Below the pieces are notes generated by a model that was not told the DNA's origin, searched no databases, and saw nothing but the letters and a program-made list of their open reading frames with translations. Positions 4,870-33,415 of a stretch of 33,415 nt of DNA are shown here, one piece after another. The position numbers and the translations under genes are program-made. The stretch lies in IMG/VR virus record IMGVR_UViG_2563366922_000004. One strand, given 5' to 3'. Positions within the stretch are counted from its first letter, which is position 1. Each line of letters starts with the position of its first letter. The DNA is from a virus. Its lineage: Duplodnaviria > Heunggongvirae > Uroviricota > Caudoviricetes.

Positions 4870-5145
4870 ATGTCGATGTACACAACCGCCCAACTGCTGG
4901 CGGCAAATGAGCAGAAATTTAAGTTTGATCCGCTGTTTCTGCGTCTCTTTTTCCGTGAGAGCTATCCCTTCACCACGGAGAAAGTCTATCTCTCACAAAT
5001 TCCGGGACTGGTAAACATGGCGCTGTACGTTTCGCCGATTGTTTCCGGTGAGGTTATCCGTTCCCGTGGCGGCTCCACCTCTGAATTTACGCCGGGATAT
5101 GTCAAACCCAAGCACTTAGCATGGCTTTCTGAGGCTTTCGTGTAG
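4870..5145 (+). pseudogene. E: Major capsid protein E, 5' fragment: 82 native codons then 9 insert-derived codons (LAWLSEAFV) and stop
   Basis: MSMYTTAQLLAANEQKFKFDPLFLRLFFRESYPFTTEKVYLSQIPGLVNMALYVSPIVSGEVIRSRGGSTSEFTPGYVKPKH matches lambda E residues 1-82; similarity ends abruptly at 5115/5116. Confidence 0.9.
5107..5115 (+). repeat. Left att core copy CCCAAGCAC (attL side)
   Basis: Matches the right copy CCGAAGCAT at 16152-16160 in 7 of 9 positions; both lie exactly where lambda-E homology ends and resumes. Confidence 0.6.
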
Positions 5146-5227
5146 TTGCTGGTTTTTACACTTAATCTTTTGATAATAAAGAATAAGTTTATCTGGCGCT
5201 TTCACTGAATTTTCCTCGTTATCTGTG

Positions 5228-5263
5228 TGTTGCAATCATCTCTGTATTGCAGCTTGTATTGCT
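5228..5263 (+). promoter_or_regulatory. Cluster of TGT(A/T)TTGCA direct repeats upstream of int; candidate integrase arm-type sites
   Basis: tgttgcaa (5228-5235), tgtattgca (5243-5251), tgtattgct (5255-5263); the same TGTATTGCA motif recurs twice near the other end at 16043-16063. Confidence 0.4.
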
Positions 5264-5277
5264 TTTTGGGGCTAAAA

Positions 5278-6513
5278 ATGGCTGGCGAGAACAAACTGAG
5301 CGACAAAGCGCTTAAAGGATATCTGGGGAAACCCAGAGAAAAGCAGATCACCATTGCTGATGGAAAGGGGCTTTCTATTCGTGTGAGTACTAAAGGGGCT
5401 GTGAGCTTTGTTTTCTTCTACAGGTTAGCAGGTGGCCGGGCTGCTCCGGTCTGGCTAACGTTGGGTAAATATCCTGATATGTCACTCAAACAGGCAAGGG
5501 AAAAGCGCGACGAGTGCCGTGGTTGGTTGGCTGACAAACGTGATCCGCGTATCCAGATTAAGATTCAGGCTGAAGAACGCTTAAAGCCGGTCACAGTGGA
5601 GGATGCACTAAATTACTGGTATGAAAATTACTGTAAGGTGCGTCGTAAAACTCATGCTGTAACGCTTGGCAGATTTCGAAAGCATATCTTTCCCTATATC
5701 GGTCATTTGCCCGTAAATGACACTCACCTATATGAATGGCTGGACTGTTTTGACCGAATTAAACGTAATGCACCAGTTATGGCGGCGTATGTTTTTTCTG
5801 ACACTAAATTAGCTCTTCGTTTTTGTCGGGTACGCCAGTACGCGACGTGTGATGCTTTAAAGGATTTGCGCATGAGTGATGTGGGGCAGATTGCAGGTAA
5901 GCGGGATCGGGTTCTGGATGAAGCCGAACTCGGCCAGCTCTGGAAGGCAATTTTTGTCGAGCCTGATTTAAAACTAATGTCTGAATACACGCGAAAAATG
6001 TTTGTGCTTTGTACAGTATTTGGATGTCGAATGAGTGAAGCCCGATTATCAGAATGGAGCGAATGGGATCTCGAAAGTTGGGTTTGGACTGTACCAAAAG
6101 ATCACTCAAAAACTGGTGTTGAAATCGTCAGACCAGTACCTGAAATTCTACGACAGTGGGTAACGGATGTTCACGAAGAGACAAAACATACTGGTTATGT
6201 GCTGGGAAGTCTGCGAATTAGAGAAAGCGTAAGCAAGATTGGGGGGAAAATCGGTAAACGTTTGGGCCATGAAAAACAATGGTCACTACACGACCTTAGA
6301 AGAACGCTATCTACTCATCTAAGTGATCTCGGTGTTGAATTTTATGTAGTAGAACAACTGTTAGGCCATGCGCTACCTGGCGTGGCAGGTGTTTACAATC
6401 GGAGTAAGTTTATGGCTAAAAAACTGGATGCTCTGGAACTCTGGACTACATATCTCAATAGCATCGCAGGTGCTGATTCAAAAGTGACAATCCTCAAACA
6501 AAAGGCTGGTTAA
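5278..6513 (+). CDS. int: Tyrosine recombinase / integrase (P4-like), probable ATG start at 5278
   Basis: N-terminal arm-binding-like region (GKYPDMSLKQAREKRDE) and C-terminal catalytic motifs (HDLRRT, LLGH, GVYNRS); ORF track opens at GTG 5227 but the homologous N-terminus begins MAGENKLSDKAL. Confidence 0.88.
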   Translation: MAGENKLSDKALKGYLGKPREKQITIADGKGLSIRVSTKGAVSFVFFYRLAGGRAAPVWLTLGKYPDMSLKQAREKRDECRGWLADKRDPRIQIKIQAEERLKPVTVEDALNYWYENYCKVRRKTHAVTLGRFRKHIFPYIGHLPVNDTHLYEWLDCFDRIKRNAPVMAAYVFSDTKLALRFCRVRQYATCDALKDLRMSDVGQIAGKRDRVLDEAELGQLWKAIFVEPDLKLMSEYTRKMFVLCTVFGCRMSEARLSEWSEWDLESWVWTVPKDHSKTGVEIVRPVPEILRQWVTDVHEETKHTGYVLGSLRIRESVSKIGGKIGKRLGHEKQWSLHDLRRTLSTHLSDLGVEFYVVEQLLGHALPGVAGVYNRSKFMAKKLDALELWTTYLNSIAGADSKVTILKQKAG

Positions 6514-6514
6514 C

Positions 6515-6742
6515 ATGAAAAAAATGGCAATTGTTGATAAAAAGGGTCTGGAGTACATTCCTAACATTGATCGTATGATCCGTGAGAAAGAATGTCGGGA
6601 GCTAACCACTCTTGCGAACAGCACACGCTGGAAGCTGGAGAAGGAAGGAAAATTTCCTAAGCGGATCAAGATTGGCGCTACTGCGGTAGCTTACCGTCTC
6701 TCCGAAGTTCAGGCATGGATTAGGGGGGAATGGCGGACATAA
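6515..6742 (+). CDS. alpA: AlpA-family HTH transcriptional regulator / excisionase-like protein (75 aa)
   Basis: Small protein directly after int with an AlpA-like helix-turn-helix region (ATAVAYRLSEVQAWIRGE); typical int-alpA pair of P4-like elements and PICIs. Confidence 0.8.
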   Translation: MKKMAIVDKKGLEYIPNIDRMIREKECRELTTLANSTRWKLEKEGKFPKRIKIGATAVAYRLSEVQAWIRGEWRT

Positions 6743-6778
6743 ATGTTGTAGTAAATTGTTATATAAAAGGGTGTAAGC

Positions 6779-7654
6779 ATGGCTACTCGAAAAAAAAATA
6801 GCGTAGAAATGAAAACTGTTTGTGAACTAATCATATCAAGAGATGATATGAAAGATAAAATTCAAGACAGAATTCAAAAAGGATTATTACTCCTACAGAA
6901 AAGCATAAATAACAATAGTGACTTGGAGCTGTTTAATGCTGATTACAGGAAATGGAGTGATTTTAATGCTGAGCTACTGAAGCGTAGTTTCACAAATGAT
7001 GATTTCAAAGAAGAATATGAAGGTGGGGCATTTGGTGTTATTTCATTGTACGAGACTTCCTTGGGAGAAAAAATCAGTGAGGCTACGCGTAAACTCCAGA
7101 GTAAGATAAGAAAACTAGAGTCGATTATGGAGCGACTGGAGTTAATTCCTATATCTTCCAAAGTTGTTGAAGAAAATATTGAAGTACCTCAGAGTTCAGC
7201 GGTAAAAACCAAAAAGGTATTCATTGTTCATGGAAGAGATGAAATATCAAAAACCAACTTAGAAGTGTTTTTAAGAGAAATTGGCTTAGAACCTATTGTT
7301 CTCCATAGGCAAGCTGATGTAGGTCAGACAGTGATTGAGAAATTTGAAGCAAATAGTGATGTTGGTTTCGCATTCATTCTTCTCACACCTGATGAGATCG
7401 CTTATTTATTGCCGCAAGACTCTTTACCTGATAATGAAAGAGAAAAGGAGTTACGTGCACGACCAAATGTAATGTTTGAATTTGGTTATTTCGTAGGGAA
7501 ATTAGGTCGTTCTAAGGTTTGTTGTCTATACACAGGTGATGTAGTGATTCCAAGTGATTTGAATGGTCTTATTTATAAAAAATTCAATTCTTCTATTGAA
7601 GAAGTAGCATATAGCATTATTAAAGACTTGCGAGCTACTGGTTACGCAGTTTAG
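6779..7654 (+). CDS. Two-domain protein: N-terminal coiled-coil-like region plus C-terminal TIR-like domain; candidate defence effector
   Basis: C-terminal half has the motifs I recall for bacterial TIR-like (COG4271-type) proteins: VFIVHGRD...LLTPDE...RARPNVMFEFGYFVGKLGR; the gene and its flanks are strongly AT-rich compared with neighbours. Confidence 0.55.
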   Translation: MATRKKNSVEMKTVCELIISRDDMKDKIQDRIQKGLLLLQKSINNNSDLELFNADYRKWSDFNAELLKRSFTNDDFKEEYEGGAFGVISLYETSLGEKISEATRKLQSKIRKLESIMERLELIPISSKVVEENIEVPQSSAVKTKKVFIVHGRDEISKTNLEVFLREIGLEPIVLHRQADVGQTVIEKFEANSDVGFAFILLTPDEIAYLLPQDSLPDNEREKELRARPNVMFEFGYFVGKLGRSKVCCLYTGDVVIPSDLNGLIYKKFNSSIEEVAYSIIKDLRATGYAV

Positions 7655-7683
7655 TAAATTCTTTGAACTAAAAATCTGCATAG

Positions 7684-7716
7684 ATATAGAGCCATTCGAG
7701 ATAAATGGCTCTATAT
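7684..7716. terminator. Perfect 13 bp inverted repeat with 7 nt loop between convergent genes; likely bidirectional terminator
   Basis: ATATAGAGCCATT-cgagata-AATGGCTCTATAT read directly; sits between the stop of 6779-7654 (+) and the stop of 7730-7909 (-). Confidence 0.5.
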
Positions 7717-7729
7717 GAAATATTATCTG

Positions 7730-7909
7730 TTAAATTTTGACTTCATATCCGCGTTGCTGTAGTTCTTTGCGAATAATCCTTTTAATCCAGGCTGCTAAAG
7801 ATTCGTCTCCATCTACTTGCTGTGCTTGCTCCATCAACTCCCTCAACTCAGGATCTAACCGAAACTGGAACGGAGGATTACCACGTCTTTGATTTTTGTG
7901 TGTTGACAC
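7730..7909 (-). CDS. Small Arc/MetJ-type ribbon-helix-helix DNA-binding protein (59 aa, GTG start); not in the ORF track
   Basis: Manual minus-strand translation gives (V)STHKNQRRGNPPFQFRLDPELRELMEQAQQVDGDESLAAWIKRIIRKELQQRGYEVKI, with a beta-strand then two helices as in Arc; start codon overlaps palindromes. Confidence 0.5.
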   Translation of the reverse strand: MSTHKNQRRGNPPFQFRLDPELRELMEQAQQVDGDESLAAWIKRIIRKELQQRGYEVKI

Positions 7910-7957
7910 GTCAATTACACCCGATGTAATGTGTTAATGTGTGATGACACATTACAT
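7903..7957. promoter_or_regulatory. Divergent control region: palindrome TTGAC-AC-GTCAA (7903-7914) and 10 bp inverted repeat ATGTAATGTG / CACATTACAT (7924-7933 / 7948-7957); candidate operator and promoter
   Basis: Inverted repeats read directly; TTGACA at 7903-7908 is a plausible -35 for the rightward operon; located between the RHH gene (-) and the 8040 operon (+). Confidence 0.35.
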
Positions 7958-8039
7958 ACGTGTTTAGGAAAATGCAACGCCTCGACGTGCGGGAACACCA
8001 TCGAGGCGTCTAACCAACCCGTTAAATGAGGTAACGATT

Positions 8040-8405
8040 ATGGCTGGAACACAGCATACCCAAACTCACCCTAAATTTATATACACCTTTCTGGCACTAC
8101 ACCACGACCGCATGGCAGATGGAGCAACTACGGTACATGTAGCCGCTGACACGCTGGTTGATGCCCGCAAGATGGTTAAGGAGATGGGCTATACTGCGGC
8201 TTTCTGGAAAGGGCGTGAAGAAAACACGCTGTTTATTCAGAAATGCGAAAACAATTTCATCTGGCGTTTTATCGCCCTGAGCACCGCACAACCGCGCGTG
8301 ATTCACATCGTGGCCACCAGCGAACAGGAAGCACGCCAGCAATCCCCGGCTGGCTGCGTGATGGTATTCGCCGCCCGTATTCGTCAGGGGGTATGCCATG
8401 CCTGA
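8040..8405 (+). CDS. Hypothetical protein; C-terminal part resembles Icd-like (cell-division-inhibitor-like) small proteins of P4-like elements
   Basis: C-terminal segment FIWRFIALSTAQPRVIHIVATSEQEARQQ...VFAARIRQG resembles the Icd-like pattern from memory; GAGG Shine-Dalgarno about 9 nt upstream of ATG 8040; first gene of a + operon. Confidence 0.45.
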   Translation: MAGTQHTQTHPKFIYTFLALHHDRMADGATTVHVAADTLVDARKMVKEMGYTAAFWKGREENTLFIQKCENNFIWRFIALSTAQPRVIHIVATSEQEARQQSPAGCVMVFAARIRQGVCHA

Positions 8406-8718
8406 TATGTCAAATTACCAGTACCTGATTAATCCGCATTTTAACTGTGAGCATGATATTGCTAAAAAGGTTTATTCCGCTGCGGATGGGGCTACTGACA
8501 ATATATCAATGGCTGTTGCGTCAATTGGTAGCCTGATGTGGCATGCGTCAGAAAATGAGGACTATGACGAAAAGGCTATGCGCATTGATATGGGTAATAT
8601 CGGTTTGTTACTGGCAATGCTTGGGCAGTTTGATATTTCGTTACGGTGCACCATTGAAAATGCCACAGATGCATTAAATGCCATAAAGAAAGCGAATACT
8701 GATTCAAATCGGGGATAA
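8398..8718 (+). CDS. Hypothetical protein (106 aa)
   Basis: ORF with ATGCCTGA start/stop overlap with the upstream gene (translational coupling); no recognisable family. Confidence 0.45.
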   Translation: MPDMSNYQYLINPHFNCEHDIAKKVYSAADGATDNISMAVASIGSLMWHASENEDYDEKAMRIDMGNIGLLLAMLGQFDISLRCTIENATDALNAIKKANTDSNRG

Positions 8719-8724
8719 ATAATC

Positions 8725-9024
8725 ATGAGAACATATTTATCTGGCTTGACTGCCAGCGGTTATGCACACCCCAAAATTATCCCCGGCGCTATTTATCTGG
8801 ATAAGAACGGTAACAGAGTAACGGTAAAAGAACTGATGTTTGACCGTGTGTATTTTATTCGTGATGGCTATTCATTTCATAGTTCGCTGAACGTGGAGAT
8901 CTTTATTAGCAGATTCAGGCGGGAAATCCCGCTTTCCAGAAATAACCATGTGTCATGTATGGATGTTGATAAAAAACTACAGGAACTGAAAAACATGATT
9001 GCCGCGTGGAGAGAGCAGAAATGA
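8725..9024 (+). CDS. Hypothetical protein (99 aa)
   Basis: ORF in operon context immediately upstream of the primase gene; no recognisable family. Confidence 0.45.
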   Translation: MRTYLSGLTASGYAHPKIIPGAIYLDKNGNRVTVKELMFDRVYFIRDGYSFHSSLNVEIFISRFRREIPLSRNNHVSCMDVDKKLQELKNMIAAWREQK

Positions 9025-10838
9025 AAAAAGCGCCAAATTTAAAACACCAGCCGCGTGACAAAATGACGGAAGTCATCATTTTTGCGGGTAGTGATGCGTG
9101 GGCACATGCGAAACAGTGGCAGGAACAGGACGGGCGACTGGCTGGCGATAACGTGCCACCTGTCTGGCTTGGAGAGCAACAACTTGCCGAACTGGACAAC
9201 CTGCAAATCGTACCGGACGGACGCTATCGCGTGCGTCTCTATCAGGCGGGGTTATTGCGTCCGGGGCTTGTTAATACCATCGGGCAGAAACTGGCAGTGG
9301 CAGGTGTCAGGGATGCTGATTATTACCCTGAAGGAATGCACAGCCAGAAACGGGAGAACTGGCGCGAATATCTGGAACGTGAACGGGCAGAGCAGGCGGA
9401 AAAGAAAAAGGTAGTTGAACTGCCTGTAAAGAAAAAAGAGCGGGTAAAAGACGATAACGCTTCATCACTGGCGCTTAACCAGATGGGAGCAAGTCAACGC
9501 GGCGAAGTTCTCCTGGCACATTATGGCGGTGAACTGGCGATTCATGCTGACTCTGACACTGTTCACCATTACAACGGCGTTGTATGGGAGCCAGTACAGG
9601 ATAAAGAATTACAGCGAGCTATGGCACAGATTTTCATTGATGCGGAGATCAGCTATTCGCAGAACGCCATTAAATCGGCGGTCGATACCATGAAGTTAAG
9701 TTTGCCTGTAATGGGGAATACAGCCCGTAACCTGATTGGATTCAGTAACGGGGTATTTGATACCAGAACAGGTAATTTTCGGGAGCATAACAAAAACGAC
9801 TGGTTGTTAATTGCCAGTGAATTACCTTTCAGCCCACCAGCAGAGGGGGAAACGCTGGCAACACATGCGCCGAATTTCTGGAAGTGGTTACGCCGTTCGG
9901 TGGCTGAGAATGACCGCAAGGCGGATCGCGTACTGGCTGCATTATTCATGGTGCTGGCGAACCGGTACGACTGGCAGTTATTCATTGAGGTAACAGGTCC
10001 AGGGGGAAGTGGTAAAAGCGTGATGGCGGAGATTTGCACCATGCTGGCGGGTAAGGCCAACACAGTATCGGCAAGCATGAAGGCGCTGGAAGATGCAAGG
10101 GAACGCGCGTTAGTGGTTGGCTTTTCGCTGATTATCATGCCGGATATGACCCGCTACGCTGGTGATGGGGCAGGGATTAAGGCTATTACAGGCGGTGACA
10201 AGGTGGCAATTGACCCGAAACACAAAGCCCCCTACTCAACGCGTATTCCGGCAGTAGTGCTGGCGGTTAACAATAACGCCATGTCATTCAGTGACCGCAG
10301 CGGGGGGATCTCACGTCGTCGGGTGATATTCAATTTTTCGGAAGTTGTACCGGAGAACGAACGCGATCCAATGCTGGCGGAAAAAATAGAAGGTGAGTTG
10401 GCGGTAGTGATTCGCCATCTGCTTACACGGTTTGCTGACCAGGACGAAGCCAGACGCCTGTTATATGAGCAGCAGAAATCTGAAGAAGCACTGGCGATAA
10501 AGCGAGAGGGGGATTCGCTGGTGGACTTCTGCGGCTATCTCATGGCGTCGGTAATGTGTGATGGCCTGTTAGTGGGTAATGCTGAAATTGTGCCATTCAG
10601 CCCACGCAGGTATCTCTATCATGCCTATCTGGCTTATATGAGGGCACATGGGTTTGGTAAACCTGTAACACTGACGCGCTTCGGTAAAGATATGCCGGGG
10701 GCAATGGCGGAATATGGCAGGGAGTATATGAAACGGAAAACGAAGCACGGTTTGCGTTCAAACGTGACACTGACGGAGGAATCAGAAGACTGGATGCCAT
10801 CATGTGTATCGGTCACTAATGACGATAGCAAAAATTAA
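9006..10838 (+). CDS. Replication protein: primase / SF3-type helicase (P4-family), start 9006 or 9021
   Basis: Walker A motif VTGPGGSGKS and Walker B-like SLIIMPD; 610 aa; immediately followed by an iteron array. Confidence 0.82.
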   Translation: MERAEMKKAPNLKHQPRDKMTEVIIFAGSDAWAHAKQWQEQDGRLAGDNVPPVWLGEQQLAELDNLQIVPDGRYRVRLYQAGLLRPGLVNTIGQKLAVAGVRDADYYPEGMHSQKRENWREYLERERAEQAEKKKVVELPVKKKERVKDDNASSLALNQMGASQRGEVLLAHYGGELAIHADSDTVHHYNGVVWEPVQDKELQRAMAQIFIDAEISYSQNAIKSAVDTMKLSLPVMGNTARNLIGFSNGVFDTRTGNFREHNKNDWLLIASELPFSPPAEGETLATHAPNFWKWLRRSVAENDRKADRVLAALFMVLANRYDWQLFIEVTGPGGSGKSVMAEICTMLAGKANTVSASMKALEDARERALVVGFSLIIMPDMTRYAGDGAGIKAITGGDKVAIDPKHKAPYSTRIPAVVLAVNNNAMSFSDRSGGISRRRVIFNFSEVVPENERDPMLAEKIEGELAVVIRHLLTRFADQDEARRLLYEQQKSEEALAIKREGDSLVDFCGYLMASVMCDGLLVGNAEIVPFSPRRYLYHAYLAYMRAHGFGKPVTLTRFGKDMPGAMAEYGREYMKRKTKHGLRSNVTLTEESEDWMPSCVSVTNDDSKN

Positions 10839-10850
10839 ACTTATGGAATA

Positions 10851-11075
10851 ACTGTTCACCACTGTTCACCCTGTCATAAATATCTTTTATATCAGTATAT
10901 TATAGGGTGAACAGTTATTTATGAACTGTTCACCAAACTATTCACTGTTCACCTTTTTGATTGTTTATTGAGCTTCAAGGGTGAACAGTGGTGAACAGTT
11001 GGTGAATAGTTTTTGTGAAACTGTTCACCCCTTAACATTATGAATTAAAAGAGAAAATATCAAAAGGTGAACAGG
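10851..11075. repeat. Iteron-type replication origin: about 10 copies of CTGTTCACC / GGTGAACAG in both orientations with an AT-rich centre
   Basis: Copies read directly at about 10852, 10862, 10906, 10926, 10945, 10979, 10990, 11000 (variant GGTGAATAG), 11021 and 11066; directly downstream of the primase gene. Confidence 0.7.
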
Positions 11076-11125
11076 TGAAGGGTTAAAACGCAAAAATTTT
11101 AATTTACTGCTGTGAGATAAAGCCT

Positions 11126-11371
11126 ATGACAGCGAAGCACACAAAAAAATCACAATCGCACGCCCTTGATTTGACGGAACACTGGTTAAGGGTGTCGATA
11201 AAAATCATTGACCGCAACGCCGGGGAAGGATATGCGAAAGCACATCCCGAACTGATTAGCGCATTCATGACAACGGCAGCTGCAAACTTTGCCACGCTGA
11301 CAGAACGGGAGATTGCCGAAGCGGAACAGGTGACAACCATCAACGTTAAAACCGGAGAGCAGACAGCATGA
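11126..11371 (+). CDS. Hypothetical protein (81 aa)
   Basis: ORF whose stop overlaps the start of the downstream SSB-like gene (ATGA); no recognisable family. Confidence 0.35.
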   Translation: MTAKHTKKSQSHALDLTEHWLRVSIKIIDRNAGEGYAKAHPELISAFMTTAAANFATLTEREIAEAEQVTTINVKTGEQTA

Positions 11372-11790
11372 CAGCACAGATAGCGGCTTACGGACGGCTG
11401 GTGGCTGACCCGCAGTTAAAGACCACCAGCAAGGGTACACAAATGACGATGGCGAGTATGGCGGTCCCCCTTCCGTGCAGCCAGGCAGATGACGGAACGG
11501 CGCCGATGTGGTTATCCGTCCTGGCGTTTGGCAGACAGGCCGACGCACTGGCAAAACACCACAAAGGCGAACTGGTGAGCGTGGCGGGTAACATGCAGGT
11601 AAGCCAGTGGACAGGCCAGAACGGCGAAACGCGGCAGGGCTGGCAGGTTATCGCAGACAGTGTAATCAGTGCCAGAACGGCGCGACCGGGCGGCAAAAAA
11701 GGTCAACAGGGCCAGGCTACTGACGCACTGAACAGGGCAAAACAACAGTCGGGGAATGATGATCCGTACGGCGATAATATACCGTTTTAA
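11368..11790 (+). CDS. ssb: Single-stranded DNA-binding protein (SSB-like, 140 aa)
   Basis: OB-fold-like N-terminal region and acidic C-terminal tail ending DDPYGDNIPF, resembling the E. coli SSB tail DFDDDIPF. Confidence 0.65.
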   Translation: MTAQIAAYGRLVADPQLKTTSKGTQMTMASMAVPLPCSQADDGTAPMWLSVLAFGRQADALAKHHKGELVSVAGNMQVSQWTGQNGETRQGWQVIADSVISARTARPGGKKGQQGQATDALNRAKQQSGNDDPYGDNIPF

Positions 11791-11807
11791 ATTCTGCAAA
11801 TAAAAAA

Positions 11808-11836
11808 ATGCCGGAAGAAAATAGATTTTCCGGCAT
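11808..11836. other. 9 bp stem hairpin (ATGCCGGAA...TTCCGGCAT) preceded by an A7 run; possible terminator after ssb
   Basis: Inverted repeat read directly. Confidence 0.3.
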
Positions 11837-12001
11837 GCTACATAAATCCCGACCAAAGGAAGTAAATACATTAACACGAATTATCAGCACTGAAGTTGTC
11901 ACGGCATATTTTATACAACATTGCACTTGGTTGCATGTATTCGCATAGCAGACATCGGTAATAGAATATATTCACAATTATTTGTAATGAATGTAAAGAG
12001 G

Positions 12002-13048
12002 ATGAGTATGGTTGATTTATATTCGCCTACACAGCTTGTGCAGGTGGCTAATGCTGAAGATGTGCAAAAAAAATTAAATGCGTTGTTTACCAGTTTGTTT
12101 TTCACTCGCTCGGTAATGTTTGAATCGAGAGACATTATTCTTGATACGATCGACGATCCAAATATCCCGATCGCGGCGTTTTGCTCTCCTATGGTGGGCA
12201 GTAAAGTTTCACGAGATGAGGGATACGAATCAAAAACAATTCGCCCTGGCTATATGAAACCGAAAAGCAGCATTGATCCAAATAAGTTAGCTGTGCGCCC
12301 TGCTGGTGTGTCACCTGAGCAATACAATGCTTTTGGGGCGCGTAATATTAAAGTTAAACAGGCGATTGTAAATCAGGCTAAAGCTATTCGTACACGTATT
12401 GAATGGCTTGCTGTTCAGGCAATCACAACGGGGAAAAATATCATTGAGGGCGATGGTATTGAACGTTATGAGCTGGACTGGAATATAAAACCACAAAATA
12501 TCATCACTCAGTCTGGCGGTACTGAGTGGTCAGGTAAGGATAAAGAAACTTTTGATCCAAATGATGATATTGAGAGCTACGCAGAATTTAGTGAGGGCGT
12601 CACTAATATCATCATTATGGGCGGTAATGTATGGAAGAAATACCGTTCATTCAGAGCGATAAAAGAGGCTCTGGATACCCGTCGTGGTTCTAATTCCGAA
12701 CTGGAAACGGCCCTTAAAGACCTTGGTGATTCGGTGAGTTTTAAAGGGTATATGGGCGATGTTGCGATTGTTGTTTACAGCGGGCGTTATACCGACGAGG
12801 ACGGAACTGAAAAACATTTCCTTGATCCTGATTTGATGGTGCTTGGCAATACGGCTCTTCAGGGGATTGTCGCTTATGGCGGTATTCAGGATCCGGAGCT
12901 AATCCGGATGGGGCTGACTAAAGCCGAACTTGCACCGAAAAACTATATTGTGCCTGGTGATCCGGCTATTGAATATGTGCAGACACATTCAGCACCACAG
13001 CCAATACCGGCCCGTATCAATCGTTTTGTTACCGTTCGCATTGGCTAA
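12002..13048 (+). CDS. Insert-encoded major capsid protein, diverged homolog of lambda gpE (about 349 aa)
   Basis: MSMVDLYSPTQLVQVANAEDV... aligns along its length with lambda E (shared motifs ITQSGGTEWS, LDTRRGSNSELETA, GDVAIVVYSG) but is clearly diverged; start chosen by analogy with lambda E (MSM...), ORF track opens at 11921. Confidence 0.85.
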   Translation: MSMVDLYSPTQLVQVANAEDVQKKLNALFTSLFFTRSVMFESRDIILDTIDDPNIPIAAFCSPMVGSKVSRDEGYESKTIRPGYMKPKSSIDPNKLAVRPAGVSPEQYNAFGARNIKVKQAIVNQAKAIRTRIEWLAVQAITTGKNIIEGDGIERYELDWNIKPQNIITQSGGTEWSGKDKETFDPNDDIESYAEFSEGVTNIIIMGGNVWKKYRSFRAIKEALDTRRGSNSELETALKDLGDSVSFKGYMGDVAIVVYSGRYTDEDGTEKHFLDPDLMVLGNTALQGIVAYGGIQDPELIRMGLTKAELAPKNYIVPGDPAIEYVQTHSAPQPIPARINRFVTVRIG

Positions 13049-13058
13049 GGGGGGAGCA

Positions 13059-13400
13059 ATGGCTACTCATTACACTGAACTCATGGCTGGCACTGAAGCA
13101 CTGGTTACTACGCTGGGGATATTTTCAGCTAATAAAGGGGTAATTCCTGCATTTACGCCACTGATGCAGGAAGATACAACAGGTGCACTGGTGGTATGGG
13201 ATGGTACGAGTGCAGGTAAAGCTGTTTATGTTTCCGCTGTACAACTCGATACAGCGAAAAAAACACAGGCTCAGGTCTATAAGACAGGTGTCTTAAATGT
13301 TGATGCTCTTAACTGGCCTGAGTCAGTAAAAGAACTGTCAGTAAAGGTTGCAGCGTTTGTTGGCTCAGGTATTTCTGTTCAGCCGCTGGCTCGTGTGTAA
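13059..13400 (+). CDS. Insert-encoded head decoration protein, diverged homolog of lambda gpD (113 aa)
   Basis: MATHYTELMAGTEALVTT...ALVVWDGTSAGKAV...YKTGVLN parallels lambda D ([13 protein letters not shown]...YKSGTF); start ATG 13059 preceded by GGGGAG. Confidence 0.78.
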   Translation: MATHYTELMAGTEALVTTLGIFSANKGVIPAFTPLMQEDTTGALVVWDGTSAGKAVYVSAVQLDTAKKTQAQVYKTGVLNVDALNWPESVKELSVKVAAFVGSGISVQPLARV

Positions 13401-13411
13401 AGGGGGATACA

Positions 13412-13795
13412 ATGCAGAATCATTACAATGACCTTAAGCCAATTGCCGAAATGATGTATCCGGATCCAGCAGTAGAGGAATTAAAGGCTATTGCTGACAA
13501 AATGCGTTTAAGCGAGCGTCTTGTTGATATGAATCAGGTGATGGAACTTACAACCCTGAGTCGTCGTACACTGCTAAACCTTGAAGCACGTGGAGAGTTC
13601 CCCGAACGCGTGCAGGTTACGGAAGGGCGTAAGGCCTGGTATTTAAGCGAAGTGATCGACTGGATAAACAATATTCCGCGCGCTTCTGAATATTGCCGCG
13701 TACCTGTCCCAAAAAAGCCAGATGCGGCGCTATGCCTCAAGATTGATCGTGTACGCCGCAATGCACGGGATGGTCGCTATAAGCTGATTGGTTGA
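13412..13795 (+). CDS. HTH protein (AlpA/MerR-like winged helix region), immediately upstream of cos; possible packaging accessory or late regulator
   Basis: Central segment MELTTLSRRTLLNLEARGEFPERVQVTEGRKAWYLSEVIDWINN resembles AlpA-type HTH; function not assignable from sequence. Confidence 0.45.
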   Translation: MQNHYNDLKPIAEMMYPDPAVEELKAIADKMRLSERLVDMNQVMELTTLSRRTLLNLEARGEFPERVQVTEGRKAWYLSEVIDWINNIPRASEYCRVPVPKKPDAALCLKIDRVRRNARDGRYKLIG

Positions 13796-13839
13796 TGAAA
13801 TTAGGGCCCGTTCTGGCTGGCGGGTCCTTTCCGGCGATC

Positions 13840-13890
13840 CGGCAGGTTACGGGGCGTCAGGCGCGCGGGTTTTCGCTATTTATGAGCATT
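13840..13890. promoter_or_regulatory. cos site of the insert (cosN-like): GTTACG-GGGCGTCAGGCG-CGCGGGTTTTCGCTATTTATGA
   Basis: Flanking bases match my recollection of lambda cosN (GTTACG / CGCGGGTTTTCGCTATTTATGA) while the 12 nt between them (13852-13863) differs from lambda's GGGCGGCGACCT; lies just upstream of a Nu1-like gene, as in lambda. Confidence 0.6.
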
Positions 13891-14011
13891 TTAAGGGGAC
13901 TGGTGGTGGTTTTGTTGTTCGCTATATCTGTATGAATAATAAGAGAAAAATACAATCAATACACCAACCTGAAACAGTAATTAAGTTGTGGTATCAATGA
14001 AATTACACCTG

Positions 14012-14539
14012 ATGAACAAAAAAAACATGGCAAAAAGTTGCCGTGTAAGCGCCACTGCGTTCGATAAGTGGGGAGTGATTCCCGTCGAGCGTAAGGGCCG
14101 TGAGGCGTTCTATGATGTTGCCAGTGTAATAGATAATCGGGTTAACAATGCAATCAGCCAGATTACAAACGAAACGGGCGATATTGATGACGATGAACTT
14201 TTACGCGTCAGGATCAGATTACTGACAGCACAGGCAGAGGCGCAGGAGCTTAAAAACGAGCGCGAACGCGGCGACGTTATTGATACAGAGTTTTGTATGT
14301 ATGTTCTTTCCAAACTGGCGAGTCAGATTTCATCTATCATGGACAGCCTGCCGCTTACCATGCAAAGGCGCTTCCCACAGATGACTCCGGCTATGCTGGA
14401 TGGACTTAAAAAGGAAGTGGCTAAAGCCTGTAATGCCAGTGCCGGCGTTGCTGACAACCTCCCACAGATACTGGCTGATTATCTGATGGAAAGTACAGGA
14501 AACGTACCGGATAAGTTGCAGCTGAATAAGGATAAGTAA
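14012..14539 (+). CDS. Terminase small subunit, Nu1-like, with divergent N-terminal DNA-binding region (start 14012, or 13997/14027)
   Basis: C-terminal two-thirds parallels lambda Nu1 (RLLTAQAEAQELKN...TEFCMYVLSKLASQISSIMDSLPLTMQRRFP vs lambda RLTRAQADAQELKN...TAFCTFVLSRIAGEIASILDGLPLSVQRRFP); N-terminus differs. Confidence 0.78.
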   Translation: MNKKNMAKSCRVSATAFDKWGVIPVERKGREAFYDVASVIDNRVNNAISQITNETGDIDDDELLRVRIRLLTAQAEAQELKNERERGDVIDTEFCMYVLSKLASQISSIMDSLPLTMQRRFPQMTPAMLDGLKKEVAKACNASAGVADNLPQILADYLMESTGNVPDKLQLNKDK

Positions 14540-14550
14540 CGTAGTACGCT

Positions 14551-14826
14551 ATGACTGAATCCGAACTACTGAAAGTAATCTGCCATGCTGGTGGAGTCAG
14601 CCACCAGCATGACGAACAGACCACGCAGCCGGGCAGTGTCACCGCTGAAAATTACGCTCGTGTGGTTGCTGAGGTTATGTGGCGTGACGGTATAGAACTG
14701 AACGGACAGGATTGCTTAGTCATCCGCACCAAAGTGCTGGCTATACTGGCAGCTAGGCGGAGGCAGGGACAACGCCAGAACGTTGCATCGTACCAGTGGA
14801 AGAAGCCTGACAGACTGCGGCGATAA
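14551..14826 (+). CDS. Hypothetical protein (91 aa)
   Basis: ORF directly downstream of the small terminase gene; no recognisable family. Confidence 0.4.
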   Translation: MTESELLKVICHAGGVSHQHDEQTTQPGSVTAENYARVVAEVMWRDGIELNGQDCLVIRTKVLAILAARRRQGQRQNVASYQWKKPDRLRR

Positions 14827-15122
14827 CTCTTTGATTTTCTCGACGGCCCCAAAATGGGCCTTACCATAGCCAGCTAATAAATGAGCAAGCCTCAAAAGTG
14901 AGGTTTGTGGCCGTTTGGCCTATTCATATGCTAACTCGTTGATATTCCTGACGACGCAAATTTACGCCTTGTGGCTGGTAGTCGAATTGCAAATTTGCAA
15001 CTCAACTATGAAACTACAGGTAGTTTGGGTAGTAAAAGCAACACACTGATTTTGGGGCTTCTTCGCGATACCTAATATTATGGTATCGGTGGAAGAGATA
15101 TCGTTTCTCATAGGTTAGCACC

Positions 15123-15142
15123 GAGGGCGGAGTTCCGCCCTC
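15123..15142. other. Perfect inverted repeat GAGGGCGGA-gt-TCCGCCCTC in the ORF-free spacer downstream of the HEPN gene
   Basis: Read directly; no clear U-run on either strand, so terminator function is uncertain. Confidence 0.3.
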
Positions 15143-15228
15143 ATCGAAAAATTGCTTACGAGTCGTCAAAATAAATTAATCGACTGAGTATAATGATTAA
15201 CTAATTGCTCGTGTTACTTCATTATACG

Positions 15229-15990
15229 TTATTTCCCATCTTTAAGGTTTAACCAAGTGTTAATTAAAAAAAGAGCCATTGAGCCTGATAAATTTACTGC
15301 AAGTTCGGCATGCCTTGGGGATGGCTTAATTGATGAGCTGTTCGTTCCATGTGCATCACCGAGTTTATTACGAAGAGTACCTAACCCATTTACAACTGCA
15401 GAACAACCGCCGAGAATTTGTTTGAAGATATTTTCAGTATGTTGGTCGGCAGATAGGTTAAGTTCTTTTGAAAGAGTTTTATAAAGCTCTGACATTTCAA
15501 TATTTTTATTATTATACTGAATGCCCATATCATCAAGAATGTGTTTGCAAACTGTTTCAAGAAGTGTTCTTGCGGAGGTTATCGCACCATCCGGATCTGT
15601 ATGGCGCCGTTCAAGTGCTTTTATCCAAACGGCGTGGACTCCATCCTCGTTAAACTTTCTTAATACATCAGATATGTCTTCATCCGCTGGAGCTTTATTT
15701 TTCCCTTCTAGATAGTCCAGCATCGGCTGAAATGCCTTATAAATCAAATCTCTCCGGGGGGCATACTTTTCAGTCTTTTTTATAAATCCCCAAAATTCTT
15801 TTAGTGAGCGATTAGTTCTCACAAACTCTGGTAATAGCTGATGTAAAGGAGGATTTTGTAAGAAATATGTTCTTAGAAGCAAATAATCATTATTAGCTTC
15901 ATCCTGGGCTCCTGTAGCTCTTGCAATTAGTATGTTTTGAAGCGCTACTGCGCGCTCTAGGTCATTTTGAAGGGTATCTATAATATTCAT
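15229..15990 (-). CDS. HEPN-domain protein of the Abi_C (abortive infection C-terminal) type, 253 aa
   Basis: Contains R-x6-H motif in LRNKLGDAHG preceded by ...ITSARTLLETVCKHILDDMGIQY...LYKTLSKELNL...ENIFKQILGGCSAVVNGLGT, matching my recollection of Abi_C; only minus-strand gene in the insert besides the RHH; AT-rich. Confidence 0.65.
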   Translation of the reverse strand: MNIIDTLQNDLERAVALQNILIARATGAQDEANNDYLLLRTYFLQNPPLHQLLPEFVRTNRSLKEFWGFIKKTEKYAPRRDLIYKAFQPMLDYLEGKNKAPADEDISDVLRKFNEDGVHAVWIKALERRHTDPDGAITSARTLLETVCKHILDDMGIQYNNKNIEMSELYKTLSKELNLSADQHTENIFKQILGGCSAVVNGLGTLRNKLGDAHGTNSSSIKPSPRHAELAVNLSGSMALFLINTWLNLKDGK

Positions 15991-16042
15991 AACAAATCTT
16001 TATTCACTTCATTTGTGGGTTGATAATTGAATGGTTTGTACA

Positions 16043-16063
16043 TTGATTTCTGTGTATTGCAGT
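16043..16063 (+). promoter_or_regulatory. Two TGTATTGCA direct repeats near the right end; candidate integrase arm-type sites
   Basis: Same 9-mer as at 5243-5263 near the left end; 12 bp spacing. Confidence 0.4.
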
Positions 16064-16151
16064 GTGTATTGCAACATAGCCATTCAGGTAGAGATTATGC
16101 TCTATTTTTCCTCTTATATCATTCACATACTTACACCATTGACTCATGTAG

Positions 16152-16160
16152 CCGAAGCAT
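16152..16160 (+). repeat. Right att core copy CCGAAGCAT (attR side; E codons P-K-H)
   Basis: Direct repeat partner of 5107-5115; immediately followed by E codon 83 (gaa gtg aat = EVN). Confidence 0.6.
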
Positions 16161-16940
16161 GAAGTGAATCCGCAGATGACCCTGCGTCGCCTGCCGGATG
16201 AAGAACCGCAGAATCTGGCGGACCCGGCTTACCGCCGCCGTCGCATCATCATGCAGAACATGCGTGACGAAGAGCTGGCCATTGCTCAGGTCGAAGAGAT
16301 GCAGGCAGTTTCTGCCGTGCTTAAGGGCAAATACACCATGACCGGTGAAGCCTTCGATCCGGTTGAGGTGGATATGGGCCGCAGTGAGGAGAATAACATC
16401 ACGCAGTCCGGCGGCACGGAGTGGAGCAAGCGTGACAAGTCCACGTATGACCCGACCGACGATATCGAAGCCTACGCGCTGAACGCCAGCGGTGTGGTGA
16501 ATATCATCGTGTTCGATCCGAAAGGCTGGGCGCTGTTCCGTTCCTTCAAAGCCGTCAAGGAGAAGCTGGATACCCGTCGTGGCTCTAATTCCGAGCTGGA
16601 GACAGCGGTGAAAGACCTGGGCAAAGCGGTGTCCTATAAGGGGATGTATGGCGATGTGGCCATCGTCGTGTATTCCGGACAGTACGTGGAAAACGGCGTC
16701 AAAAAGAACTTCCTGCCGGACAACACGATGGTGCTGGGGAACACTCAGGCACGCGGTCTGCGCACCTATGGCTGCATTCAGGATGCGGACGCACAGCGCG
16801 AAGGCATTAACGCCTCTGCCCGTTACCCGAAAAACTGGGTGACCACCGGCGATCCGGCGCGTGAGTTCACCATGATTCAGTCAGCACCGCTGATGCTGCT
16901 GGCTGACCCTGATGAGTTCGTGTCCGTACAACTGGCGTAA
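16161..16940 (+). pseudogene. E: Major capsid protein E, 3' fragment (codons 83-341, beginning EVNPQMTLRRLPD...)
   Basis: Translation matches lambda E from residue 83 to the C-terminal ...FVSVQLA; 82 + 259 = 341 codons, the full length of lambda E. Confidence 0.9.
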
Positions 16941-32831: not shown

Positions 32832-33415
32832 TGGCATTCAGAATGAGTGAACAACCACGGACCATAAAAATTTATAATCTGCTGGCCGGAACTAATGAAT
32901 TTATTGGTGAAGGTGACGCATATATTCCGCCTCATACAGGTCTGCCAGCAAACAGCACCTATATTGCACCGCCAGATATTCCTGCTGGCTTTGTGGCTGT
33001 TTTCAACAGTGATGAGGCATCGTGGCATCTCGTTGAAGACCATCGGGGTAAAACGGTTTATGACGTAGCGTCAGGGGGCGAGTTATTTATTTCTGAACTC
33101 GGTCCGTTACCGGAAAATGTTACCTGGTTATCGCCGGAAGGGGAGTTTCAGAAGTGGAACGGCACAGCCTGGGTGAAAGATGCAGAAGCAGAAAAACTGT
33201 TCCGGATCCGAGAGGCGGAAGAAATAAAAAACAGCCTGATGCAGGTAGCCAGTGAGCATATTGCGCCACTTCAGGATGCTGTAGATCTGGAAATCGCAAC
33301 GGAGGAAGAAACCTCATTGCTGGAAGCCTGGAAAAAGTATCGGGTGTTGCTGAACCGTGTTGATACATCAACTGCACCTGATATTGAGTGGCCTACGAAC
33401 CCTGTCAGGGAGTAA
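32831..33415 (+). CDS. tfa: Tail fibre assembly protein Tfa (194 aa); stop codon is the last 3 bases of the window
   Basis: [44 protein letters not shown]... matches lambda Tfa; ATG overlaps the stf stop (ATAATGG). Confidence 0.85.

Follow-up and report, generated by a model that had tools for sequence, protein, structure and literature searches.

How does a phage satellite that lacks a large terminase direct its helper's packaging machinery to its own DNA? The question is raised by a stretch of 33,415 nucleotides, IMG/VR record IMGVR_UViG_2563366922_000004 (hereafter the window), in which a lambda-type prophage has its major capsid gene E interrupted by a satellite that carries a cos site and, just downstream, terS, a gene for a homologue of the lambda small terminase subunit Nu1. 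The insert is a helper-embedded phage-inducible chromosomal island (HE-PICI) of the published 11capE family, whose prototype is Eco567.11capE (Tommasini, Mageeney & Williams 2023, PMC10111431). No genes for a large terminase, portal or protease were found among the genes of the 11-kb satellite, and since the satellite has no large terminase (TerL) of its own it would have to use that of the helper, gpA. We propose that the region is probably a satellite packaging-specificity cassette, consisting of a cosQ-cosN open to cutting by the helper gpA, a cosB specific to the satellite, and a matching Nu1-family TerS that redirects gpA. The window itself begins inside the helper gpA gene, and the helper cos and Nu1 were taken from L001 (NZ_AP022222), a complete genome with an identical locus.

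The cleavage half of the site is nearly that of the helper. A degenerate lambda-cos pattern matched the window once and gave 0 matches in 100 shuffles; positions 13845-13885 read GGTTACG, the 12-mer GGGCGTCAGGCG and CGCGGGTTTTCGCTATTTATGA in succession. The helper cos is essentially that of lambda, and the stretch 13821-13882 departs from that of the helper only in one A>G change and in five positions of the 12-mer, which bears out the statement in a preliminary description of the window that lambda cosN flanks surround a different 12-mer. Compared with the helper 12-mer GGGCGGCGACCT, positions 6, 8, 9, 10 and 12 differ and positions 1-5, 7 and 11 are kept. The heptamer of cosQ, an element that functions in termination (PMC9026076), is invariant in 11 satellite cos sites, and CGCTATTTATGAG in the right flank is likewise invariant among satellite cos sites. 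Judged from sequence, the region is a lambda-type cosQ-cosN with both flanks helper-identical. Resemblance to the helper cos ends at about +35, before the place of lambda R3.

The helper gpA very probably accepts the GGGCGTCAGGCG site. This 12-mer also occurs in the terS-less sister HE-PICI L006 and in the lambda-type prophage L024, where it stands next to a lambda cosB and where Nu1 and gpA are 98% and 99.3% (581 residues) identical to those of the helper. Because a gpA this similar is naturally found with the same 12-mer, the helper nuclease should cut the variant. We considered GGGCGTCAGGCG as a signature of satellites and rejected it, as it is present in a lambda-type prophage and phages have other natural 12-mers. 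Other satellites of the TerS clade have the canonical GGGCGGCGACCT, GGGCGTCGACCT, GGGCGGCAGACT or GGGCGGCAGCGT, and lambda-type phages have GGGCGGAAGGCG, GGGCGGCGTCCG and others; at least 10 distinct natural 12-mers exist among lambda-type cos sites, with positions 1-5, 7 and 11 constant in almost all variants among the matches listed from the IMG/VR scan described below. The window shares its flanks with locus L005 and has a different 12-mer, and it shares the left flank and 12-mer with L006 and differs in the right side and type of cosB. The 12-mer of cosN thus appears to move independently of both flanks. As the 12-mers of satellite and helper differ, their ends would be unable to anneal, so that a molecule running from satellite cos to helper cos, if packaged from an unexcised composite, presumably could not circularise. 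On one IMG/VR contig a helper 12-mer GGGCGGCGTCCG and a satellite 12-mer GGGCGGCAGCGT lie about 16.5 kb apart (L114 and L115), a second pair of helper and embedded satellite; the helper TerS of this pair is not lambda-type, and its sequence is cut off ahead of the satellite TerS C-terminus.

The recognition half of the site is of a different kind. The lambda R sequences, with their R3-I1-R2-R1 layout, are absent downstream of the satellite cosN. In their place we find a candidate R3 equivalent whose core, GGTGGTGGT, is followed by (K)TTGTTGTT. The element occupies cos positions 51-68, which coincides with the place of R3 in lambda (50-65) and N15 (48-60; PMC9026076), where phages of the N15 and enterohaemorrhagic E. 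coli (EHEC) type carry GGTTGTTGTTT. We scanned IMG/VR for a lambda-type cosQ-cosN with any 12-mer and classed the resulting loci, at least 120, by the downstream protein and by whether a gpA homologue is present; counts combine the IMG/VR matches listed with loci fetched earlier. Among the matches listed, GGTGGTGGT begins at cos position 51 and is followed by (K)TTGTTGTT in 20/20 loci with a satellite-type TerS, and neither GGTGGTGGT nor its complement occurs in any of the 112 cos loci of other types (73 lambda-Nu1, 17 EHEC, 10 phage-21-like, 1 N15 and 11 unclassified). A TerL gene is found downstream in 0/16 of these satellite-TerS loci that are long enough to judge, the other 4 being too short.

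When 11 satellite cos regions ranging from E. coli to Kosakonia are aligned, cosQ, the cosN flanks, the GGTGGTGGT element and a second block, CAATACACCMACYTG (approximately 106-120), are kept and the rest of the intergenic sequence diverges. Conservation of cosQ/cosN and the motif extends over satellites of E. coli, Kosakonia, Enterobacter and Superficieibacter, and that of the second block over those of E. coli, Kosakonia and Superficieibacter. The complement of the second block as it stands in the window (CAATACACCAACCTG), GGTTGGTGTATTG, is loosely R3-like, and the block may therefore be an inverted second TerS site. Neither a sigma-70 promoter nor a plus-strand terminator was found between cos and terS, and Rfam gave no match in the cos-terS region. 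The sister L006, with the same integrase type, has a lambda-type cosB (R3, R2, R1) and a truncated Nu1 stub. The window element would accordingly be described as a sister of the L006 type in which the recognition half of cos was exchanged and a complete TerS gained.

The gene that follows this cosB begins at ATG 13997, 133 bp past the 12-mer, a start that we chose because HL(L/M)NKKNM is conserved across homologues. That a Nu1-like gene lies about 130 bp downstream had been noticed before, and the assignment is confirmed by Pfam Phage_Nu1 (PF07471; E=1.1e-24, 87.4 bits against a cutoff of 30), by a PHROG 57 match (9e-53) and by hhalign against lambda Nu1, which gave a collinear alignment of residues 6-166 on 3-180 with 99.85% probability. 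A PDB sequence search with TerS returned nothing relevant and missed even the Nu1 DNA-binding domain. Judged by alignment, the protein consists of an N15-type DNA-binding domain, a coiled-coil region, an assembly domain, a divergent C-terminal domain and a 13-residue tail. When TerS and the helper Nu1 are aligned in lambda numbering, identity is 42-43% in the DNA-binding domain (residues 1-55), 28% over residues 56-99, 51-54% in the assembly domain (100-140), the best conserved part, and 29% in the gpA-binding region (141-181). This profile overturns two points of the preliminary description, namely that the gpA-interacting C-terminus is conserved, as it is among the least conserved parts, and that the N-terminus has been replaced, as it is collinear with the winged helix-turn-helix region of the helper Nu1.

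The DNA-binding domain is 59-61% identical to those of N15 gp1 and EHEC-type prophage TerS. The recognition helix reads RTIQNWQE in lambda, QAFDKWGV in N15 and TAFDKWGV in the satellite, and the wing of the satellite TerS is three residues shorter. From its sequence we therefore regard the TerS N-terminus as homologous and N15-type, with an altered recognition helix. Compared with L001, both the recognition helix and cosB differ from those of the helper, and the helper Nu1 should not recognise the satellite cosB element. A difference in specificity determinants is thus the sound core of the preliminary idea. No part of TerS is better conserved within the satellite clade than the DNA-binding domain (76-93%). 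Together with the 20/20 linkage, this suggests that TerS binds at the GGTGGTGGT element.

Selection on terS was estimated as the mean pairwise ratio of nonsynonymous to synonymous rates (dN/dS) over 10 distinct E. coli alleles. The ratio is 0.04 in the DNA-binding domain, 0.16 in the linker, 0.14 in the assembly domain, 0.17 in the C-terminal domain and 0.32 in the 13-residue tail. The C-terminal domain thus appears to be retained under selection though unlike that of the helper. A TerS from a chromosomal PICI of Superficieibacter sp. (L015, 10001-10504) bears on the function of this domain. Its N-half belongs to the satellite type, with 87-89% identity in the first region and 77-79% in the second, and its C-half resembles lambda, being 80% (100-140) and 63% (141-181) identical to it compared with 66-68% and 39-44% to other satellite TerS. 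Such a chimera would be expected if the C-half is a module matched to the large terminase. The idea in the preliminary description of a satellite with its own cos and a Nu1-like specificity subunit is upheld on comparative grounds, by the missing TerL, the purifying selection and the motif linkage; its argument from a conserved C-terminus is not.

The cassette is common. The 741-bp cos-terS stretch is present at 80% coverage or more in 763/5426 complete E. coli genomes. Among chromosomal PICIs, those of O157:H7 and O26:H11 carry cos-terS at the roxA/phoQ site and that of CFS3313 carries it at cspD/clpS, and in E. coli capsid-gene HE-PICIs it is found in the window and L001 and in L076/L077. 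Capsid-gene HE-PICIs in Enterobacteriaceae assemblies, annotated at source as Enterobacter and Citrobacter, encode a TerS about 60% identical within the same E-D-AlpA-cos-terS module, and cos-terS also occurs in Kosakonia and Superficieibacter. TerS homologues at 57-60% identity lie in this module of satellites, and TerS homologues have so far been met in satellites only. A scan of genome contigs with strict peptide patterns from the satellite TerS alignment gave 4 loci, namely the satellites of Kosakonia and Superficieibacter and two loci of Alteromonadales in which the cosB element is N15-like.

We propose the following sequence of events. Upon helper induction the satellite would be expressed, excised and replicated, and the N15-type winged-helix domain of its TerS would bind GGTGGTGGT(K)TTGTTGTT at cos 51-68. 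Bound TerS would then position the helper gpA on the satellite cosN in preference to helper DNA, and gpA would nick cosN to generate GGGCGTCAGGCG cohesive ends. From concatemers, DNA would be packaged rightward, and cutting of a downstream satellite cos with the use of cosQ and cosN would end the process. The likely product would be a helper-sized head filled with about four copies (~44 kb) or, if the E and D homologues of the satellite re-size the capsid, a small head with a single copy. Multimer packaging is plausible because four copies of ~11.0 kb come to ~44 kb, and multimers of EcCICFT073, a PICI discussed below, are reported to be packaged in helper-sized heads (PMC6092414).

Recruitment of gpA is the weak step of this mechanism. 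Two indirect signs, retention of the divergent C-terminal domain at a dN/dS of 0.17 and the chimera with a lambda-like C-half, favour direct binding, in which this domain would contact gpA. Several observations weigh against our proposal. The C-terminal 41 residues of TerS are 29% identical to those of the helper Nu1, no closer than the phage-21-like TerS of CFT073 is to lambda over residues 141-181 (32%), so that sequence does not imply direct binding to this helper's gpA; the lambda/21 hybrids described in PMC9026076 indicate that the TerS proteins of these two phages are not interchangeable for TerL binding. This domain is also the least conserved within the satellite clade (37-68%), and 1 of 11 E. 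coli-type terS alleles carries a frameshift. On the DNA side, nothing better than 2 mismatches to the integration host factor consensus was found in 13864-14012, and no second R site could be established in the satellite cosB. An AlphaFold2 model from a 16-sequence alignment gave the order strand, helix, helix, two strands, helix, which is compatible with a Nu1-type DNA-binding domain, but at low confidence (mean pLDDT 58.6).

The closest parallel to the cassette is cos1-rppA of EcCICFT073, for which experiments have shown that packaging is redirected (Fillol-Salom et al. 2019, PMC6739421); Rpp stands for 'redirecting phage packaging' (PMC6739421; Murialdo & Feiss 2022, PMC9026076). EcCICFT073 lies at the same roxA/phoQ site as the chromosomal islands above and has the same module, with cos1 and rppA in place of cos and terS. 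Both are islands of one kind with one slot, made of an E homologue, a D homologue, a helix-turn-helix (HTH) gene, cos, the specificity gene and orf91, and both combine a lambda-like cosQ/cosN with a non-lambda cosB at the R3 place and a product with a Nu1-type N-terminal DNA-binding domain. They differ in that the window TerS is a 180-aa full-length Nu1 homologue that aligns to the end of lambda Nu1, whereas known Rpps have 139-154 aa and lack the TerL-binding C-terminal domain. EcCICFT073 moreover has cos1 and an inverted cos2, whereas the window has a single cos and no second, inverted cos like cos2 was found in it. No similarity of the satellite TerS to RppA is detectable (BLASTP E=6.3; hhalign probability 0.06%). 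We considered TerS as an elongated Rpp or a direct ancestor of Rpp and rejected this, since the RppA DNA-binding domain NRTTIRAWTKQGMPY (by-eye translation) looks lambda/21-like and not N15-like and the proteins are dissimilar. From synteny, cos-terS and cos1-rppA are best described as alternative cassettes in one slot.

The cosB cores of the two cassettes are related in an unexpected manner. The window has GGTGGTGGT at 51-59, whereas the Rpp-type cos1 (EcCICFT073, L013) has, a few bp away at 55-63, ACCACCACC, which is its exact reverse complement. The mirror image may be due to chance on a triplet repeat, to an inverted ancestral satellite cosB, or to a shared third factor. One extension of our proposal, which we hold tentatively and think could be true although the odds do not favour it, is that the Nu1-type cassette is a third and autonomous route of cos piracy. 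In this case the satellite TerS would replace Nu1 and make the helper TerS dispensable, the fast-evolving and recombining C-domain would be an arms-race interface, and the (GGT)3 element, present in opposite orientation in Rpp islands, would reflect a shared satellite cosB ancestral to both cassette types. If true, this would bear on the open question of how Rpp originated.

A serious rival to direct gpA binding is bridging by the helper Nu1 through the conserved assembly domain. Here TerS would be unable to bind gpA and would act in the manner of Rpp, co-assembling with the helper Nu1 through the assembly domain or the dimer of DNA-binding domains and poisoning recognition of the helper cosB, and the helper Nu1 C-terminus would bridge gpA to the satellite cos. 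Such a mode, which we consider rather unlikely, would need the helper TerS, as EcCICFT073 does. That the assembly domain is the part best conserved relative to the helper Nu1 (51-54%, against 29% for the gpA-binding C-terminus) agrees with it, as does the position of terS in the rppA slot of syntenic PICIs and the Rpp precedent itself (PMC6739421, PMC9026076). However, Rpps do without the C-terminal domain that TerS keeps under purifying selection, one lineage has swapped in a lambda-like C-half, which is sensible only if that half has a function, and there is no sequence similarity to RppA. The residues at the dimer contacts of the lambda DNA-binding domain also differ, being IFG in lambda and SCR in the satellite according to the alignment.

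It is less likely still that the cassette is tuned to another lambdoid terminase, for instance an EHEC/N15-like one, and has little or no function with the resident lambda-type prophage, which would then be mainly an integration target. The nearest relatives of TerS are indeed the N15 and EHEC-phage TerS (46-48% overall, 59-61% in the DNA-binding domain, and 41% compared with 29% at the C-terminus), the cos of an EHEC-type prophage aligns to cos-cosB at 78%, and near-identical cassettes occur in chromosomal PICIs of O157/O26 strains that carry such phages. However, no phage TerS is close at the C-terminus, 41% being the maximum, TerS-type HE-PICIs reside inside lambda-type helpers (Nu1 99%) in two or more lineages of E. 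coli (window/L001; L076/L077), and the integrase clade targets helper late genes specifically (PMC10111431). That cos-terS is an inert relic, a phage late fragment captured passively and without a current role, the satellite moving, if at all, by other means, is highly improbable, because despite the capture of helper late genes by PICI late zones (PMC10111431), the loss of terS in the sister HE-PICI with its lambda-type cosB and Nu1 stub, and the one frameshifted allele, dN/dS is 0.04-0.17 across domains, the gene is kept at 57-60% across genera in the same module, the association with the cosB motif is complete among the matches listed, and the cassette is present in 763 complete E. coli genomes.

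Returning to a TerS that itself directs gpA to the satellite cos, its functional analogue would be TerS_S of SaPIs, the pathogenicity islands found in Staphylococcus aureus, a satellite small terminase that works with the TerL of the helper (Ubeda 2007, cited in PMC6739421). Both are satellite homologues of the helper small terminase with another DNA specificity, an own packaging site and no large terminase. The SaPI system, however, is of the pac/headful type, belongs to Firmicutes and is aided by Ppi, whereas that of the window is cos-type, has cosN/cosQ in common with the helper and differs in cosB alone; unlike in SaPIs, no Ppi-like function was identified for the window element. N15 gp1 (PMC9026076) resembles TerS in its DNA-binding domain (59% identical, QAFDKWGV against TAFDKWGV), and N15 likewise has a compact cosB with one G/T-rich element at about 50-60 (GGTTGTTGTTT) and a G at position 12 of the 12-mer. 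However, the C-half of gp1 is lambda-like (76-80%) with a TerL gene adjacent, whereas that of the satellite protein is divergent (54% and 29%) and its gene an orphan, and the satellite motif is (GGT)3 followed by TTGTTGTT.

Two further comparisons concern satellites that copy the helper site. Eco567.11capE, for which excision and replication were demonstrated and virions were not detected, reportedly lacks terS and has 258 bp in common with its helper cos at 90% identity (PMC10111431). It has the same capsid gene E site, gene organisation and co-orientation with the helper late operon as the window element, and the 11capE-like L006 even shares the variant 12-mer. The prototype relies on the helper's cosB, whereas the window element shares cosQ/cosN only and brings its own cosB and TerS. 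P4 and SaPIbov5 are also cos-packaged satellites dependent on the large terminase and virion proteins of the helper. In these, however, the whole helper cos is copied and the helper small terminase is unchanged, whereas the window satellite alters the recognition half of cos and supplies a matching subunit. The cassette may thus be viewed as a widespread variant of known satellite packaging tricks, a counterpart of SaPI TerS_S in cos systems and an alternative to Rpp.

The strategies characterised to date are Rpp, pac-type TerS_S with Ppi, carriage of the helper cos, and capsid-forming PICIs (PMC6739421 among others). That some Gram-negative PICIs carry a terS homologue has been mentioned in passing (PMC6092414), and our literature search found no functional or comparative treatment of the Nu1-like TerS of cos-type PICIs or of its cosB motif. 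At present a single mechanism, Rpp, is taken to explain Gram-negative cos-type PICIs. A cassette in ~14% of complete E. coli genomes, the O157/O26 islands included, suggests a second, SaPI-like solution, in which a full small terminase comes with its own cosB and the nuclease site alone is common with the helper. Should this be borne out, it would reveal which elements of the lambda cos can change while the helper nuclease is still used, and it would provide a natural system for dissecting TerS-TerL matching, as chimeric C-halves already exist. It would also inform the origin of Rpp and help to predict which phages mobilise islands with defence and virulence genes.

Table 1. Features of the satellite and its cos-terS cassette, in window coordinates.
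Feature	Position	Strand	Remarks
Satellite insert	5115..16150	+	~11.0 kb; in helper major capsid gene E, co-oriented; 11capE-type HE-PICI
E-like capsid homologue of satellite	about 12041-13048
D-like decoration homologue of satellite	about 13059-13400
AlpA-like HTH gene	13412..13795	+	Pfam Phage_AlpA 1.4e-8; PHROG 2790; directly upstream of cos
cosQ heptamer GGGTCCT	13822..13828	+	23 bp upstream of the 12-mer; sequence and spacing as in helper/lambda
cosN 12-mer GGGCGTCAGGCG	13852..13863	+	Predicted 5' cohesive end, from comparison with helper cos
cosN right flank CGCGGGTTTTCGCTATTTATGAG	13864..13886	+	Same as helper through 13885; equivalent of the lambda I2 region
Candidate cosB R3 equivalent TGGTGGTGGTTTTGTTGTT	13901..13919	+	cos positions 50-68; core GGTGGTGGT at 51-59 (13902-13910)
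Second conserved block CAATACACCAACCTG	13957..13971	+	cos 106-120; lies between cosB and terS in every satellite cos region compared
Satellite small terminase gene terS	13997..14539	+	180 aa; Nu1 family (Pfam, PHROG 57, hhalign)
orf91	14551..14826	+	91 aa; begins 12 bp after terS; PHROG 1561, unknown function

The surroundings of the cassette (Table 1) are those of the family. Gene E is split such that lambda E nt 1-245 correspond to window 4870-5114 and nt 236-1026 to 16149-16940; the two halves overlap by ~10 bp only (lambda E nt 236-245). Because the gene is interrupted, the helper would be unable to produce its own capsid protein until the satellite is excised. According to Pfam and the RefSeq annotation of the identical locus, the satellite genes are in the order int, HTH, TIR, icd-like, DUF4222, D5-type primase, SSB, E-like, D-like, AlpA-like, cos, terS, orf91 and Abi_C, all on the same strand as the helper late operon except for the reversed Abi_C. 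This corresponds to the zone order Integration / Bro / replication / late, with int, AlpA and primase present, as described in PMC10111431. The AlpA-like gene is kept in TerS-type PICIs, and by synteny EcCICFT073 has an unnamed gene in that slot. The product of orf91 is 57-66% identical to counterparts in EcCICFT073, the O157 PICI and the CFS3313 PICI; the gene follows either terS or rppA and is a candidate accessory packaging or interference factor.

Two further genes of the satellite encode a TIR-domain protein of the CAP12/Pycsar type (6779-7654) and an Abi_C abortive-infection protein (15229-15990, reverse strand), which are likely anti-phage cargo. In the sister element L006, HEPN and DUF262 genes take the place of Abi_C. 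Outside the satellite, in the tail-fibre assembly region with which the window ends on the right, Rfam IS009 matched 33174-33372 with 227.8 bits.

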